From Octopus vulgaris (Eukaryota), in NCBI GenBank assembly GCA_951406725.2, contig OX597816.1, forward strand, positions 144,522,001 through 144,586,000: a stretch of 64,000 nt of DNA, given 5' to 3'. Of this stretch, positions 338-61,222 are shown piece by piece. Position 1 is the stretch's first letter. The number at the start of each line of letters is the position of its first letter. A model generated the notes under the pieces. The model saw nothing but the letters and a program-made list of their open reading frames with translations, had not been told where the DNA came from and made no database searches. The position numbers were made by a program, and so were the translations under genes.

Positions 338-410
<73 letters not shown>

Positions 411-686
411 TTAATAAGGGTGAGAGAATTAGATACTAATTTAATAGTATATCCATTCAACACCAAGTGGCCTAGTGCTCCGAGAAACCTGGATTATTAT
501 AATATTTTATAATATATTATAATATTTTTACAAAATAAATATAAGAGAGTGGTCACTATATGGCTCACTCTAGCACCAGTTAATCCAAAGGGTTTCAACC
601 ACTAAAAATACATGTTTCCCATGAAAGTCAGTACGATTGTTAGCTCACACGGACAGGGCAAATAAAAAATAACAAAATACAGATTA

Positions 687-768
687 TTTTGGGACAATTG
701 TTTCGCTATTAATGAATTAAATGTAATTTTACTTACAAAAAAATCCACTTGTAGCTCATCGGCCAAAA
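687..768 (-). ncRNA. Type I hammerhead ribozyme (inverted copy)
   Basis: Reverse complement of 1008-1089. Confidence 0.65.
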
Positions 769-1007
769 CTATCTGGATGAAATCCACTCAATCACACGCC
801 AGATTTTACCATTCTCTCACCCTTATTAATTAATTATAATTATGCTGCATTTATTTCTGAATGCTGTATTTGTTTTCCGTGAAAGTTTTGGCGCGCTGTT
901 AGTTGGGGCATTTGAATTATAACGTCGGATGTAATCAATTGAACCACACGCGTATTTATCGTTATGGTAAAATCTGGCGTGTGATTGAGTGGATTTCATC
1001 CAGATAG

Positions 1008-1089
1008 TTTTGGCCGATGAGCTACAAGTGGATTTTTTTGTAAGTAAAATTACATTTAATTCATTAATAGCGAAACAATTGTCCCAAAA
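1008..1089 (+). ncRNA. Type I hammerhead ribozyme, long stem II insert, U4C core variant
   Basis: Stem I ttttgg(1008-1013)/ccaaaa(1084-1089); core ccgatga; stem II gcta/tagc; gaaa; palindromic stem III acaattgt; GUC cleavage triplet at 1081-1083. Confidence 0.7.
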
Positions 1090-1232
1090 TAATCTGTATT
1101 TTGTTATTTTTTATTTGCCCTGTCCGTGTGAGCTAACAATCGTACTGACTTTCATGGGAAACATGTATTTTTAGTGGTTGAAACCTTTTGGATTAACTGG
1201 TGCTAGAGTGAGCCATATAGTGACCACTCTCT

Positions 1233-1271
<39 letters not shown>

Positions 1272-1626: not shown

Positions 1627-1953
1627 GTTGTTCGGAAAGTTCGTGCCGGTTTATAGTAGCTTACCTTTCGACTTATTTTAGAACATGTTTGAGTCCATGA
1701 AATAGGATTTGACTACACCTCCATTTAGAACAAAGTCTAAGCTATCGTTGATTTACTGAGCACATCGTTTTTTTTTAACCTGTGAATAGTTGTTTTGTTT
1801 GGTTTGCTTTTGTGAATAATACTTGTTAATTGCTGTTGTTGAACTTTGTCTGTTTTGTGACAGACGAAAAAACTGTTGTTCCCCTCTGTAAAGGGGCGGT
1901 GGGGGGATAATTACATTTTGTATACACACAAAAATTTCTGTTTGAAATAAAAA

Positions 1954-3500
1954 ATGATGAATAGTGAAGATTCGTCGTCTTCTAGTGTAACTATTGAAGA
2001 ATCGTTTTCTTCCAGTCAAAAAAGTGTAACTATTGAAGATTCGTCTTCGAAAAGTGGAGGTAAAATAATGAATGTTAACGAAAGCACAGACTCGGAAAAA
2101 AAGGATACCCCAAACGCAAACCAAAAAAAGTACACCTTCGCAGCTGCGGCTGGACTTAAGAGAGAAGTCCTATGCATTCATAACAATAAACTGATGAAAC
2201 ACGAAGATATGTATACCAGGGAGGGGCTCGATGCAAGGGCCGCCCTCCGAAATGAAATTATCCAGAAAACACAAATGAGAATCATTACATTCAAATCATT
2301 TATTATAAAAGAGAAAAAATAGAAAAATCAACTAGCGAACAAGTTCAGATGTGTCTGCAGCCAATTTGGCAAGTTATTGAATACAATACAAGAGGGAAAA
2401 ATACGCAACCGTTGTAGTTTACTTCAAAGAAGAAGAAAGAGCAAAAAAAAGCATTCACTTCAGCCAATAAAGACAAACGAAATAATATTAGTGCCTACAT
2501 AACTAGGAAGACAGACTGCAAAAATAAAAATTGAAGAAATCCCACCAGAAATAGAAGTGACATGGTTGCTTCCAGCCCTATTAATGGGGCTGGAGGATAA
2601 AATAACCATTATAGAAGCAGTTAAAATACAACAGCAAAACTGGCGGGGTCAGGGTCTAGAAGTGACTATTCAGGCGGCCCCCACAAAACTTAGAGGAAAT
2701 AGTAGAAAATATTCACTTGGGCGAGAAAACTACATTGCGAATGGTGGTAGTGGGGCGAAAACCCCGTTGCTATGAATGTGGCGAAAAAGGCCACATTCGA
2801 GCAGACTGCCCCACCCGCAAGGAGGAAGAAGAAAAAAGGAGAAAAGAAGCAGAAGAAGAAAAACAGAAAGAAAGCCAAGACTCCGGCACCAAGCAGGCCG
2901 AAGAAGAAACAGACTTTGTCCCAGTAAGACAAAAGAAAACACCATAAAGGAGGAACAATGACTTAACCCCACCCATCCCCAGCACAAACAAGAAAAAAAA
3001 AGCATCACAGCAAACACACAGAAAAACCCACCCCTCCCCACCACGGCTCCCCACAGAAGTCAAAAAATGTACCCCCCCCATCCAATTCCGGATACCTGAC
3101 GATCTCAGTGTTGAAGACTTTCTTCCCCTCCCGGTCTCCACCCCTACAACACCTCCTTCCACCCCATCCACCCCATTCACCCTATCCACCCCATCCACCC
3201 CACCAAGTGTGGGTGTGTTGTCTCCACCAACTAGTCCCCAAAAAGGAGAAATGACCTTTCAGATTGTTTATATGGCCATCAACAAGAAAAACGACCAAGT
3301 AATAAAAAGCATTCAAAACATTCCATCAGCAGAACAAATTGTAACCCACTGAACATTGCCAAAACACATTGACATTTTTAAGAAAGACAGAATGAACTTT
3401 AATATATTAAAAGCTAACTTTCCATCTGACATATGTGGTCCGAAATTAGATTTACATGAATCCTTGTATGAGGGCTTATGTCGGAACACTACCCCATGAA
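1954..3500 (+). pseudogene. Tx1 ORF1 (gag-like, CCHC zinc knuckle), frameshifted
   Basis: CYECGEKGHIRADC at 2768-2809; coding region broken into several ORF fragments. Confidence 0.75.
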
Positions 3501-3538
3501 CCCCGGAAAAAGGAAAGACTGCCGAATAAGGTAACTCA

Positions 3539-6500
3539 ATGTCTCGCATTCATGTAGAGGACATAAATGTGTGTGGCCTGATGTCGAGCTGGAAGCTAGG
3601 GCGCTTCCTAAATGACATCAGGTCACAGGATTTAGATGTTGTTGCTACAGAAACCCGGTTGAAGAGGCCAAGAGATCTGCTCCCGCTGTTCAGCGGTTAC
3701 GAGAGGATTTTCTCTCCGAGCCGTCCTCCCAGCGGAAGTGGGGTGTTAGTCTTGTGGAAAAAAACCGGGTTTCTGAGAGAAAGTTAATTTTTTCAGATCC
3801 AGAAGATAGGCTGGTCGTCGTTGACTTGACATTCAGCAGTTGTAAGACTATCAGACTGGTTGCGATTTACGCGCCCCGATATTCAACGGGGCAAAGCGAA
3901 TATTTTCGGAACCTGGAGAAGTTTCTTAGTACATCGCATCCTTTAGTTTTACTTGGAGACTATAACACAATCTACGATGCGCCCGTACATTATGTTGGCT
4001 CGTGTTCAGATGCTTGGTTCCTGGATCTACTAAGACGTTTTGAGCTGGTAGATCCATATAGGCTGGAATATCCGAACGCTCCATTTTGGACATGGTCAAA
4101 CAGCGACGGATCTTCCAAGACGTACATAGATGGGATATTAATTAGAAAAATAGATACAAAAATAGCTAGGTGTCCACAGTTTCACAAGATGGTCACATGT
4201 AGGCTCGATATAGATAAGTTATATAGAGGCCCCGGCTCTTAATACGTCCCTTTTGGCGATTAAGCAGTACAGAGACCGGATTCAGTTGTTGATTCAGAGG
4301 GCATTAACCGGATCTATTATTAACAACAAATGGTGGTATGCCCTCAATCGAGCCATTAAATATGAGTCTATTATATATAGTGGCTAGAGAGGCTAGAAGG
4401 GAATCAGCACTAGTTAAGGACTTAGAAGAAGCAATGCGAACTGGCACTGCGGCTCAGGTGAGGGCCAAGAGACTGGTTTTAGACCAGCACCTCGAAGCCA
4501 AACACATGGGTTGCATCGTCAGGGCTACACAACGTGTAATGGGGAGTGAAGGAATTAATGCCGCGGGATAGGCCCGAGTGGTGGTAGCCCAACTTGGTAA
4601 CGATGCCACAATTCGATCTTTGACGAACCAACAAGGTAAGTTGATAGACGAGCCCGAGGAGATGTGTGAGGCTTTTCAGGACCACTTCGCTCAGCTCTTT
4701 GGGGAGGGCGGCGGACCGGATAGGAAGAGGGGCCTAACGGACTTCCTCGACGGGCTGCCACGCCACTCGGGGCCGGATGCGAAGTGTATTGAGAGGCTGA
4801 TCACGCCTGGGGGAGTAATAGAGGCCATGACTGACTGCGGCGCAGGTAGGGCGCCAGGACTGGATGGTCTACCCTACAAGGTATATAAAAGTATGCCGGA
4901 CTTGTTTGGGCACCTGCTGGCGAACGTCTACGCGAACTGGCAGCAGAATGGGTTTATTCCCAGATCTGTGCGTCGGGAAGTGGTGACGCTAGTCAGAAAG
5001 GACCCGGACAAGGGGGACGTCATTGATAAATTTAGGCCCATCACTCTGCTGAACGCAGAGCTGAAGATTTTGGCCAAAGTGTTATCAAAAAGATTGGCGC
5101 GTGTCGCGGATGGACTAATCGGTGGGGGGGAGGTGCACAGACATGTGTCGTACCCGGCAGATCCATCCAGGATAATCTCCATCTTATACGATACACTATA
5201 GAGGGAATTAATAACGATTCCGGCAAGGGAGGGGCAGTGGTCCATATAGTCCAATCAAAAGCTTTTGATAGGGTCGACCATCATTACCTGGTGTCCGTTC
5301 TGGCAGAGTTTGGCCTAGGTATTGACTTCCTCAGGTGGGTCATTCAAATGTATGAAAACGTCGACTCGGTAGCTCGGGTGAACGGCTTTCTGTCTAAGCC
5401 GTTCAGCATCAAATGCTCGGTTCGTCAAGGGTGTCTGCTCTCACCGCTTTTGTATGTAATGGCTCTTGAGCTATTGCTGCGAAAACTGAGTGGCATCCCG
5501 AGACAACTATGTTGTGGAATGTCGGTTTCAGCTTACGCGGATGACATCACTATCATCGTAACCGAAGTGGACCACCTACGTAAGATAGACAAGGCCATTG
5601 AGGTTTACGAGACGGAGGCAGAAGCAAAAGTTAATCGTGAAAAGTCAGTCGGCTTGCAACTCGGCACTTGGAGAGGCAAGTCGATGCCTCCAGACAGCGT
5701 CGTGGGACGTTGGACGGAGGGTCCGATTAAGTTGCTTGGAGTTTGGTTTGGACCAGACCTCCAAATAGAGAAGAACTGGGCCGAGGTATTGACCCACATA
5801 GCCAAGACCTGGTTTTGGCGGTAGCTATCCCTGAAAGGGAGGGCGGAGGTGGCCAATGTGTTTATCGCATCGGTTATCACCTACCGCCTTGCCGTCGTTC
5901 CTTACTCTGATTCGTGGTTAACCAAGCTGGAAAGACAATTCTTCTGCTTTTTGTGGAAGAGCTCGAACCCGCTTGTGAAACGCTCTATTTGCTGTCAACA
6001 ACCGTTAAAGGATGGACTAGGGATGCCTTGGCTAATGATGCGCAAATATGCGCTGAGGTTGAGGCATCTGTGGCTCTACCTGGATGGTGAACGGGTGTGG
6101 TTTCCGATGGTGAAACAGATGTTTCCCAGGTTCACTAGTTTCGGTGGACGGGAAACCTGGTTTTATCGTAGATCGAAGTTGGGTACGTGGTTTACGGAGT
6201 GTCGCAAGGCACTCCTGCTCTTCCGTCGCTCGGGCAAGGCCTGCGGCAGTGGTTCTGCCGCTGTCTTTTATAGTGGGTTTGTAGAGGCGGAATGCGATGA
6301 TACATTGGAGGAAGCCCTAGGTTTCGACGATAATCAGCTGACCAGACTGTTGCAACGTACATTCGGGTCGGAGACCCTGGCATGGTGGCCGGGACACTCC
6401 GATCTGTCCAAGATGTAGGCAGGACAGGGAAACCGTCCCGCACGCGATTTTTCAGTGTCCAGAGGTGTCAGATGTGTGAGTTTTCGCCGAACAACTGTTG

Positions 6501-44710: not shown

Positions 44711-44989
44711 TACTATCTACATGTATATCGAAAGGAGTCAGCAAATTTTCTGTCAGACTGATTTTTCTGTCTGACTGATTTTTCTTTTGAAAGTGGCAAA
44801 GGTTGTCTACAAGTTTTCTGCCGGACTGATATTTTATCTCATGTTATTTTTTTTTTAAAGTGGCAAAGATTCATTGTAACTTTGAACGTGAATAAATACA
44901 TTTTTCATTATTATGTACTGTGTTCTACTACTCTACGGTGACTTTTATCATTTATTTAAAAGGTTCTTGACATACACTTTCAAATACAC

Positions 44990-45981
44990 TTTCTAGGACA
45001 GCACTCTAAACCATATGAGATGTCATCGGGTGTACCACAGGGATCTGTCCTTGGTCCCCTCCTGTTTGTGGCATACATTAATGACATAGATGCCAATTTA
45101 AAGAATGCCACAGTATTAAAATATGCAGACGACATCAAGCTGTACCTTGAAATCAAGAGGACTGATCCTGATGTCTACAACTCTTTCCTGCAATCAGACC
45201 TAGACACAATGCAGCAATGGATCACAGACTGGCAACTGAAACTGGCTGTGGACAAGTGTACCACCATGCATTTTGGGAGAAAAAACCCTGCGTCCACATA
45301 CTCCCTCCACAACACTGATATCAAGAAATCCTCTTGCGAGCGTGACCTAGGCATCACTGTCAGCAGTGATTTGCGTTGGACAAAGCATATCTCTAAAATT
45401 GTCAAGAAGGCCGAGGGTGTCTTGGCATCACTCAGCAAGACTTTTGTTAGCCGCTCTCCAGCCATCTATTTAAAACTGTATACAGCTATGGTACGACCAC
45501 ACTTGGAATTCGCATCATCAGTTTGGAATCCCTATCTTGCTCAGAACATTGACCTCCTGGAATCTGTCCAGAGACGTGCAACCAAACGCATACCCTCCAT
45601 CAGACACCTACCATATTTTGAGCGCCTTGTTTCCCTGGGCATGGATTCACTGAAGCTCCGGCGTCTAGCGACGGACTTGGTAAACACCCACAAGGTTATC
45701 AACCACCTCACCAACAACAACACTGAACACCTTTTTGATCTCCATGTGTCTAACACACGTGGACATGCCTACAAAGTCAGAAAACAGCACAGCTCCCATG
45801 ACTTTCGGAAACATTTTTTCACGCTCAGGGTTGCTGAAGCGTGGAATAAACTGCCTGCATCAGTTGTTGACTGCCATGACACTGCATCCTTTAAGGCCCT
45901 CATGCTTCCCGAAATCCGTCGAAACTACACCTGATTATATATACACTTTAGATGAGTTGTAGTGCACCTGAGCACTGTACA

Positions 45982-58542: not shown

Positions 58543-59896
58543 GTATGTATGTATGTTGGTAGCGATTGCTTAGAATGTTAAGTGACTATACTTGTGATAT
58601 TATTTTATCATTTAGTGTGTTAACTGCATTGCTCTTGTACCAGGATGAATTGTGCAGCATTGAGGTTTCCCACTAATGATTGCTTGGAACAGTTATAAAT
58701 TGTTTTACTTAGCTTTTTTATTCAGGTAAGATGGTTAATAAGGTGCATGGTGTTATACAAGGTGTCGTTTTCTATATATTTTCAAGTGTTGGTTGTGGTG
58801 TCCATGTACTGGATCTATTATTTTTACATAAGATATGAAGCCTATACCAGAAGGTGTTTATCTAACATTATCAACGTGTAATTAAGGATTTGAAGAGATC
58901 TGTTTTGCGGTTGTGAATATTTTTCTTAAACAATCATAACGTGAATGTTGTGCGTTAGAATAACATATTCTAATTCCATAGAGCTGCTTTTGGGCCTTTA
59001 ATTTTTGAATTGCATTGTTTTTAAGTGCTCATAATATGTTTACAAAGTTTACAATTAACTGTGAAATGCCGGTATTTCTTAATGAAGTATTTCATGTAGA
59101 TCTCTGGTGTTGAGAATGGAGATAATAACAGTCTGTTGTTTCTAATTATTGTCGTTATTGTTGCCATTGTTGTTATTTTTATGGTTACTGTCGTTGTTAT
59201 TGTTCTTGTTTCAATAGAGTTGTAACTTAAGGTGTGATTGAAAATATTTTCCTCTTGAAATCTCTCTTCTTTGGCGCCACAACACAGCAGCACACATCAC
59301 CTTTCCTGTAAATAAACCAGATGTAAATAGCATTTGTGCTTGAAGTCTTTTCTCTTCGCTTGCTGGAAGCCTGAACTACTTAAAGAACAAAAAGAATGAT
59401 GGAAGGAGACGATATTCTTCCAATATCGTAAACCTTGCCTTCAATTATTAAAAATGGTGCCCCCCCCCCCGACGTAGAAAAGTTTTTCGACAGCCACAAG
59501 TTTCATCGCATTACAAAACGCCTCAGCCGAATCACGAAGTGGCGGTTTTCACTCGTTTTCGACTGGTAAACACACCAATGGCTACAATTCCAGCCGTCCA
59601 TCAACATCTAGCAAGACGACCATCACCTTCCAGTCATCGTTCCCGCCACCATATTTGAATTGTCCCACGTGGAAACAGAATTTTACCGGTCGCGCATAAC
59701 TTTCTGGCGATTTTTTTTAAACTGAGAAACAGAGAAAAAAACATATTTGTTGGTTCAAGCACACACATACCATTACACTGTTTTTCTTTTCGCATTTTTT
59801 TTTTTGTGTTGAAAGAAAACATAAGAGAGAAAAAAAGCAGGTTTAGCGACGAAAATTTTTTTTTGTTTGTGCATTCAGTACACAATTCTATAAATT

Positions 59897-61222
59897 TTGT
59901 TCAGAAAATTTTTTTCTCGCACACTCGCTACTATTTCCAACCACACTTTTTGTCGGTTTTATTTTGGTCCATTTCTTTTCTCCTCTGACAGAAGACAAAA
60001 CAAAAATTTCCCTTCGTATACTGGTGACGTCTCATTTAGGTTCGCTCAGTTAGAGGCATATTTTGCAGTACATACTGTACCATCGTCGCGTCAGTTGAAT
60101 CTTCTTTTGTGTAACATTCCTGCACCACTCGCTCCTTCAGTCAGGGATCTCATAACTGATCCTCGTCCGGATGCGACGTACGAGGGGGTCAAATCTGAGG
60201 TTCTCCGCCGAAACACAAAATCAGCGGAGTCTAAATTTAAGCAGCTTATGCAAGATGAGGAGTTAGGTGACAGGACGCCGACTCAATTTTTACGGCATCT
60301 CCGTGAATTCACCGACACGATTGAGGACAGTTCGCTTCCAAAGAAACTTTTCTTCTCCCGGCTATCTCCCAATGTGCAAACCATCTTGGTCACAGCGGTT
60401 GATACCAACACCGTGGATCAACTTGCTACCATGGCTGGCAAGATTCTAGAATTTGCTATCCAGCCAGCACCTCGCCATGTCTGCTCCTGCTCAGAGATTT
60501 CCTCCGCTGCATCTTCCACCTCTCAGTATATTTTGGATAGACTTGATGCCTTCATACGCCGAATAGACGCGCTTTGGAGAGAGCAATCCAACTCTTCGCG
60601 CCGTCGAAATCTGAGACGGTCCCGTTCACGCTCGACCGATTCCTTTTCTTCTCACTCCGGTCTGTGTTGGTACCATAAAAAATTTGCAGAAAAAGCGCAC
60701 AAACCTCTCTCTCCCAAAGTCGATGCCATTCAGCGCATCGCACCCCACACTTCACTACACCAACTTCGTCAATTTTGGGGCGTTGCCAATTTTTACAGAC
60801 ATTTCGTTAGAAATTGTGCAGACAAGTTATTTCCCTTGACTCAGCTGTTGAAGGCAGATATCAAAAAGAATTCTATTGCTTTATTTGACGAGGTGTTATC
60901 TGCTTTTGAGTTCATTAAGAAGGAAATCGCTTCTGTCCCTTTGCTTGCACATCCAGTTACCGACGCTCCTCTTTCTTTGACCGTTGATGCATCGGACTCT
61001 GCGGTTGGTGCTGTTTTGCAGCACACCGTAGACAATCAGACTAAACCTTTGGCGTTTTTTTCTCGTCAATTAAAGCCAGCTGAACGTCGGTACAGTACAT
61101 TTGATCGCGAGCTTTTGGCGATCTACCTGTCCGTTCGTCATTTTCAACATCAACTCGAGGGCCGAGATTTTGTGATTTATACTGATCGCAAGCCTCTTAT
61201 GTTTGCTCTGTCATCTAAATAG
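59897..61222 (+). pseudogene. In-frame gag to RT-thumb/RNase H fusion ORF
   Basis: Gag motifs FAQLEAYF, LGDRTPTQFLR and CWYH are joined near 60703 to KVDAI...FWGVANFYRHF and LTVDASDSAVGAVL...YSTFDRELLA. Confidence 0.85.

Follow-up and report, generated by a model that had tools for sequence, protein, structure and literature searches.

A young hammerhead retrozyme family of Octopus vulgaris whose two-armed insertions were probably primed at both ends of a staggered target cut

Circular RNAs of retrozymes have been described and their mobilisation by Penelope-like elements (PLEs) was proposed (PMC7229834, PMC4209133), and the retrozymes of animals have been argued to be non-autonomous Penelope derivatives (10.64898/2026.07.22.740005). 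Insertions of Penelope elements themselves are known to show a tail on one inverted pLTR (PMC3846280, PMC8557442), and reverse transcription by the anole enzyme PAc has two internal start sites in vitro, both strands being extended, with ribozyme-dead RNA being inserted normally in the same study (PMC11167929). The non-LTR retrozymes of Metazoa, as far as the accessible parts of these accounts describe them (coral, mussel and axolotl, PMC7229834; vertebrates, 10.64898/2026.07.22.740005), are low-GC, non-coding tandems that range from dimers to multimers and carry one type I hammerhead in each unit; they further have a 2-bp stem III with a tetraloop, a predicted circle that is strongly self-paired, a target duplication of more than 4 bp, and Penelope elements in the same genome. 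The octopus family described here resembles them in each of these traits.

Its unit of 535 nt exceeds the range of 170-400 nt in PMC7229834 and lies inside the 51-972 nt of the preprint (10.64898/2026.07.22.740005). Circles and cleavage have been demonstrated for those metazoan retrozymes; for the octopus family they are predicted. Its two-armed, head-to-head insertions with two fixed ends, hereafter sites A and B, have no description that I found for metazoan retrozymes, and in the accessible text of PMC7229834 the word 'inverted' occurs 0 times. In this build the family is instead like insertions of EN+ Penelope elements, for which the available portions of three reports (PMC3846280, PMC8557442, PMC11167929) give an inverted head-to-head copy, a tail at one end, a microsatellite target, a target duplication, a 5' junction showing microhomology and two internal RT starts. 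It is unlike them in having no ORF, a tail of ~127 nt rather than 30-40 nt, and arms that may hold many whole units; it also pairs strictly one A with one B, whereas the start sites seen in vitro in PMC11167929 were alike on both strands. A literature search, mostly without subscription journals and with no supplements, returned neither an account of this family nor one of strict A+B pairing.

The window, which is the whole 64,000-nt stretch of Octopus vulgaris DNA that was analysed, contains a single truncated two-armed insertion at 407-1238. It lies inside (TA)n, the target of the family, with target sequence at 339-406 on the left and, as (AT)n, at 1239-1267 on the right. Units were numbered such that u1 is window position 834 and u405 is 1238, while u406-536 run from 537 down to 407, resulting in a unit of 405 + 131 = 536 nt with 32% GC and a longest Met-initiated ORF of 26 aa in sense and 57 aa in antisense. 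The B arm (407-812, minus strand, 406 nt, u131-536) has site B as its outer end, and the A arm (811-1238, plus strand, 428 nt, u514-536 and then u1-405) has site A as its outer end, the typical family end being ~6 nt beyond 1238. Apart from one mismatch (590/1186), 538-812 matches 964-1238 in reverse complement; the 23 nt at 811-833 likewise mirror 407-429, and each arm contains sequence missing from the other. The 'tail' is the stretch from A to B (407-537, minus strand, u406-536) and is present at one outer end only, and an AT microhomology at 811-812 joins the arms at their 5'-truncated tips. At 833-834 (plus strand) the A arm reads through site B, which forms the tail-to-head junction of a tandem unit. 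The sequence-only reading had given these arm coordinates with their AT overlap, a closed unit of ~535 nt devoid of a real ORF, and a hammerhead with its GUC site at 1083, and all of this was borne out.

The length of the target duplication is unreadable for the window copy because its flanks on either side are pure TA. Its two hammerheads, at 1007-1090 on the plus strand and in the B arm at 686-769 on the minus strand, lie on opposite strands with zero same-strand tandem pairs, and the locus should yield no RNA monomer. As neither arm amounts to a whole unit and no strand carries two ribozymes, the copy is probably a dead end. Several other repeats were seen in the window. Two copies of a dispersed short repeat, 77% identical, lie either side of the insertion (49-143 and 1369-1463); a degraded LINE with broken frames, outside the retrozyme, occupies 1900-6420 and retains a zinc knuckle (PF00098), an AP endonuclease (PF03372) and an RT (PF00078); and there is an RT fragment (PF00078) at 44960-45934 as well as a gag-pol fragment of an LTR-retrotransposon (DUF7041, RT_RNaseH) at 59894-61222.

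Searching the genome (2.80 Gb, 227 contigs) with the 31-mer across 833/834 resulted in 713 + 678 = 1,391 exact matches, compared with 0 for the control, and these lie in arrays with a unit spacing of 532-538 bp. Tandem monomers of ~535 bp bearing the junction, as anticipated by the sequence-only reading, are present in the genome, and a one-off junction is ruled out by the number of matches. The other alternative that it had raised, namely that 834-963 is the end of a long Penelope ORF, was not borne out, this stretch adjoining the tail of the preceding unit and no Penelope ORF being found upstream of a unit in the loci checked. Patterns of the outer ends followed by TA gave 424 matches for site A (~u411) and 913 for site B (u536-538), and the insertions are therefore on the order of a thousand. 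I parsed 122 loci, or about one tenth of the family, of which 22 came from a DNA search, 76 were found by their B end (contig 1), 15 by their A end and 9 by the junction. Arms ranged from a few dozen bases to ~6.8 kb, or up to 12.7 units. Two loci on contig 1, L052 and L111, share the same arm coordinates 198 Mb apart and are probably a duplicated segment. A check of ORFs and GC on the family unit showed low GC and neither an LTR nor coding capacity. The family is a young, abundant, non-coding, hammerhead-bearing non-LTR retrozyme with a ~535-nt unit; this class of element is already known, and what the family adds is unusually clear genomic evidence on a mechanism, set out below, that has so far been a proposal in the field.

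An older sister subfamily (L248, L278-L307) has a ~501-nt unit that is 75% identical and a canonical hammerhead core. It has the same A and B ends, lying ~100 nt apart, and its 18 two-armed loci comprise 13 clear A+B pairs and 5 ambiguous ones, not counting L292 and L307, which repeat L287 and L288. A hammerhead pattern with a shorter stem II had 5 matches, three of which are relatives of the family, one an older separate family and one an apparent chance match. A third hammerhead repeat, also older (L252-L277), was observed with a spacing of ~300-330 bp, 71-81% identity and both tandem and inverted pieces; weak Penelope protein matches lie near two of its loci.

The type I hammerhead of the window (1007-1090) folds with a z-score of -4.03, and 0 of 200 shuffles were equally stable. 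Its stem I pairs 1007-1013 with 1084-1090, stem II is extended, stem III has 2 bp with a palindromic AAUU loop, GAAA lies at 1072-1075 and GUC at 1081-1083, with cleavage predicted after 1083. The core reads CCGAUGA (1014-1020), which includes the change U4C at 1015 (761 in the B arm). Across the family, the core CUGANGA is found in 84 of the 87 insertions that span it, with every position invariant or almost so save N7 (C47 A27 G11 T2, n=87), and GAAA and GUC are kept in 94-97 of 95-97 insertions. The window in its two arms, L067 and most units of L031j have U4C in common; these carriers (3/87) did propagate. U4C has been noted to lower activity in vitro while still supporting the infectivity of viroids (PMC3088659). 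Rfam gave no match in the window at gathering score, and a weak search included no hammerhead among the 150 matches listed of 189, which were microsatellite-driven miRNA matches only.

Stem covariation was assessed between the two subfamilies, which are 75% alike. Both sides had changed in 5 of 21 pairs and 98% of cells were paired, compared with 29-40% in slid controls; the number of pairs changed on both sides was not above shuffle (68/500), with only two related clades in the comparison, and of five covariation measures one fell below the shuffles and one was not beyond them. Taken together, core conservation and stem covariation make cleavage look important to the lineage, and self-cleavage of unit transcripts is predicted from structure and conservation. 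Circular monomers folded with z-scores of -4.9 to -7.4 (4 monomers, 25 shuffles each).

The parsed loci were two-armed and head to head in 77 of 122 cases, always with the minus arm on the left and the plus arm on the right, so that the RNA 3' directions of either arm face outward. The remaining 45 were one-armed, and several of these show a second arm of just 8-25 nt in the flank. Site A was paired with site B, which lies ~127 nt beyond it, in 76 of the 77 two-armed loci, with A+A = 0 and B+B = 0; the exception, L095, combines a B end with a complex end. Even among loci selected solely by their B end, the opposite end was A in 47/48. Inner ends are scattered across the unit and outer ends are fixed, and hence the circularly permuted start points expected by the sequence-only reading exist at the inner (5') ends but not at the outer ones. 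A 14-bp target duplication, i.e. a 14-mer after B found again before A, was present in 13 of 17 informative cases from 63 anchored insertions (control 23/1,054), and the match dropped to 8/20 at 15 nt and 4/20 at 16 nt. As this duplication surrounds the whole insertion, a single event made the arm pair. Target-primed synthesis from both 3' overhangs predicts such an orientation and duplication. Twin priming of L1, in which cDNA is made on one RNA from both target strands, leads to an inversion; the octopus insertions differ from L1 in that their arms go over one stretch of sequence many times, with the second start at a fixed site, and just 3 of 74 B arms end close to site A. The insertions bear the Penelope footprint of an inverted copy plus a tail, for which separate priming of two cDNAs, and not one strand switch, is the best reading.

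At 42 of the 74 junctions the arm tips have 0-3 nt in common, and arm lengths correlate (rho 0.48, possibly inflated by loci chosen for containing a whole unit). An alternative is that the inversion arose by fold-back self-priming or by one strand switch, and that the tandems come from jumping between linear monomer templates or were made afterwards through unequal crossing-over. Self-priming has been proposed in PMC3846280, the 5' points lie <=15 nt apart in 10 of 74 junctions (4.3 expected), four of them with palindromic overlaps, and long arrays contain aperiodic shared variants. However, 25 of 74 insertions, the window included by inspection, break the length limits of either fold-back model such that neither fits, A and B are fixed outer ends within a 14-bp duplication that encloses the whole, and the cleavage site shows neither excess stops nor indels. 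This explanation is already disfavoured, and I consider it highly improbable. The single strand switch at 'at' that the sequence-only reading had suggested gives way to a pair of cDNAs, each primed at its own fixed site from one end of the staggered cut, with their tips then joined; this explains the inversion better.

The favoured mechanism is that a Penelope-like enzyme primed at either end of a staggered (TA)n cut, probably on one circular monomer RNA, and I regard it as likely. A tandem array would be transcribed, and hammerheads, probably acting as dimers, would release monomers that are ligated to circles. A GIY-YIG/RT protein would then cut (TA)n to leave ~14-nt overhangs, as suggested by the length of the duplication. 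Synthesis of cDNA would start at site A from one DNA end and, 127 nt away, at site B from the opposite end, and either cDNA could make 0 to ~13 laps with no pause at the ribozyme site. Finally, the cDNA tips would be joined via 0-3-nt microhomology or a short filler.

Variation among units was used to evaluate the template. Among 406 units of 115 insertions, divergence was 0.24% inside one arm, 0.37% from arm to arm and 2.93% from one insertion to another. These figures, the variant counts and those for the 74 junctions and the crossings of GUC|C exclude L003, L095 (a complex locus) and L111 (a probable duplicate), and an alignment with one false row (L134) contributed to no count. A total of 21 variants, spread over 17 of 88 insertions, were private to one sampled insertion and present in all of its covering units, and 11 of the 21 were found in both arms. 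T>C or A>G accounted for 12/21 of these array-wide private variants compared with 26/154 of the single-unit variants (p 1.6e-4), which were mostly G>A, C>A and C>T. The spectrum suggests that the RNA stage includes a bottleneck of one unit, rather than that DNA damage was homogenised; selection on the RNA fold could likewise shape it. Since 'private' was judged among about one tenth of the copies, these variants may stem from unsampled homogeneous arrays. There are 322 cDNA crossings of GUC|C, 3 stops fall within 5 nt of it where 4.1 would be expected, and 286/286 copies of the cut-site junction are without an indel. A re-ligated circle would fit both observations on the ribozyme, reconciling a conserved motif with read-through of the cut site. 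Such a cycle was put forward in PMC4209133 and PMC7229834.

The same double-ended insertion might have used an uncut linear multimer of a homogeneous array as template, circles then being a side product or an occasional bottleneck. Homogeneous source arrays would equally give read-through of GUC and homogeneity within arrays, and in vitro it was mainly unprocessed RNA that served as substrate (PMC11167929). At L031j, moreover, 9 of 10 substitution cells show the A arm repeating the variant order of the B arm with an offset of one unit, although the indel site disagrees. Against such a template, the array-wide private variants, with a spectrum unlike that of single-unit DNA damage, need a one-unit bottleneck, selection on the core requires cleavage in the lineage, and copying with truncation alone can just shorten arrays, yet arms reach a dozen units and more. 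Furthermore, just 9 of 153 minor alleles were seen again in another insertion, and no allele is array-wide there. A linear multimer is thus an unlikely template. A circular RNA or head-to-tail multimer, as envisaged by the sequence-only reading, is supported, and between the two I infer the circle.

At 9 sites in 6 of 42 arrays the variant occurs in some units only and aperiodically, from which it follows that gene conversion or mixed templates occur. The arms of L143 are 4.9% apart while its units differ by 0.19% within an arm, and the respective values for L071 are 5.7% and 3.8%. Some insertions therefore had more than one template, and in L143 this would mean two different templates or recombination between insertions. 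The arms of L143, together with a divergence across arms that slightly exceeds that within arms and a predicted protein dimer (PMC11167929), would suit arms made from two separate RNAs on a dimeric enzyme, which would be alike because one source dominates per cell. Two equivalent RNAs should, however, also give A+A and B+B pairs, of which there were 0 in 77, and the private variants common to both arms speak against two RNAs too, making this origin of the arms quite improbable; one circular monomer serving both arms is the preferred reading. Separately, the same minor base was observed at one position in several non-adjacent units of long arrays (L060, L096, L031+L032), spanning A and B arms in L096 and L031+L032. 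These repeated minor bases could reflect a modified template base that was misread, gene conversion or an assembly error.

Transcripts were evaluated in 8 sequencing runs, available as contigs only and with their RNA nature being a guess. In contigs of the runs taken for RNA, A>G was the commonest sense-strand change, at 14/19 places in X1, 8/13 in X10 and 12/27 in X2; further such runs had 6/22 (X4) and 5/11 (X6), and subfamily difference accounts for part of this. A cluster of A>G at L070 8198-8201 was seen in X2 and X4 and was absent from X15 at a summed depth of >230,000. From this comparison between contigs of different runs, the pattern hints at an edited sense transcript. X3 held a single 565-nt contig corresponding to the unit + 30, and a circle or a perfect tandem would each assemble in this way. 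Fixed A-to-I edits in the genomic copies were considered and rejected, as array-wide rare variants have no A>G excess relative to base composition (A>G at 8 of 154 A, T>C at 10 of 208 T, G>A at 5 of 97 G). A promoter of the snRNA type found no support: the unit had no match above shuffles in the upstream regions of 3 clustered U2 loci, and the 1 of 16 U2 upstream comparisons that beat 200 shuffles was at an isolated U2 copy and was treated as chance.

A search for the Penelope partner began from the loci themselves. Using tblastn with 3 Penelope proteins against 150 loci, no Penelope ORF was found upstream of the unit in the loci checked; matches at three loci lay just past the outer end (L141) or outside the arms (L075, L122), and the one-armed loci had no shared upstream ORF into which copies run. 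The possibility that the family is itself an autonomous EN+ Penelope-like element was rejected, an RT + GIY-YIG ORF between pLTRs being absent from the unit and, in the loci checked, from the sequence upstream of it. The unit had no significant DNA match to 50 GIY-YIG and 20 F2 loci, taken from 150 scored of 6,136 candidates (a sample counted otherwise as 30 GIY-YIG loci + 40 fetched stretches). Three Penelope families had only an AT-rich hairpin in common with the unit (E 0.007-0.1), and a scan of 5 Penelope loci from the three families found no hammerhead motif. F2, an autonomous RT+GIY-YIG family of the same genome, has a short end and an end with a 30-nt AC-rich tail in 10/10 two-ended copies, which is the same pairing as in the octopus retrozyme, and its duplication length is unreadable because the flanks are pure TA.

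Two young autonomous Penelope-like families with an intact RT+GIY-YIG frame were observed, one of 781 aa (G000, L178-L186) and one of 775 aa (L187, L198-L247). Each has a separate 450-480-aa frame ahead of it, and their copies, which have short and tailed ends, lie in (TA)n; a motif scan found no hammerhead in them. These two families are partner candidates solely on account of their age and their (TA)n target. The 3' region of the 775-aa family (L187:4565-4620) shows a GC-rich hairpin with a possible pseudoknot that looks ribozyme-like by eye.

A more specific form of the favoured mechanism can be drawn for the enzyme: two RTs, dedicated one to A and the other to B within an asymmetric Penelope complex, would chase each other round one RNA circle, of which each two-armed insertion would be the record. 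The one-sided Penelope tail and the inverted copy would then be what double-ended priming on a single RNA generally yields, and the protein-less circle would recruit the enzyme by its RNA fold and not by sequence kinship. I offer this version tentatively, as plausible but somewhat short of probable.

The return of retrozymes to the genome, and the inverted copies and one-sided tail of Penelope, are open questions in the field (PMC7229834, PMC8557442, PMC11167929). With ~1,000 young and short insertions, paired fixed ends, a measurable duplication and traceable variants, the octopus family makes such questions testable, and computation on one genome, or reconstitution from the 535-nt RNA and the intact 775/781-aa Penelope ORFs, could address them.
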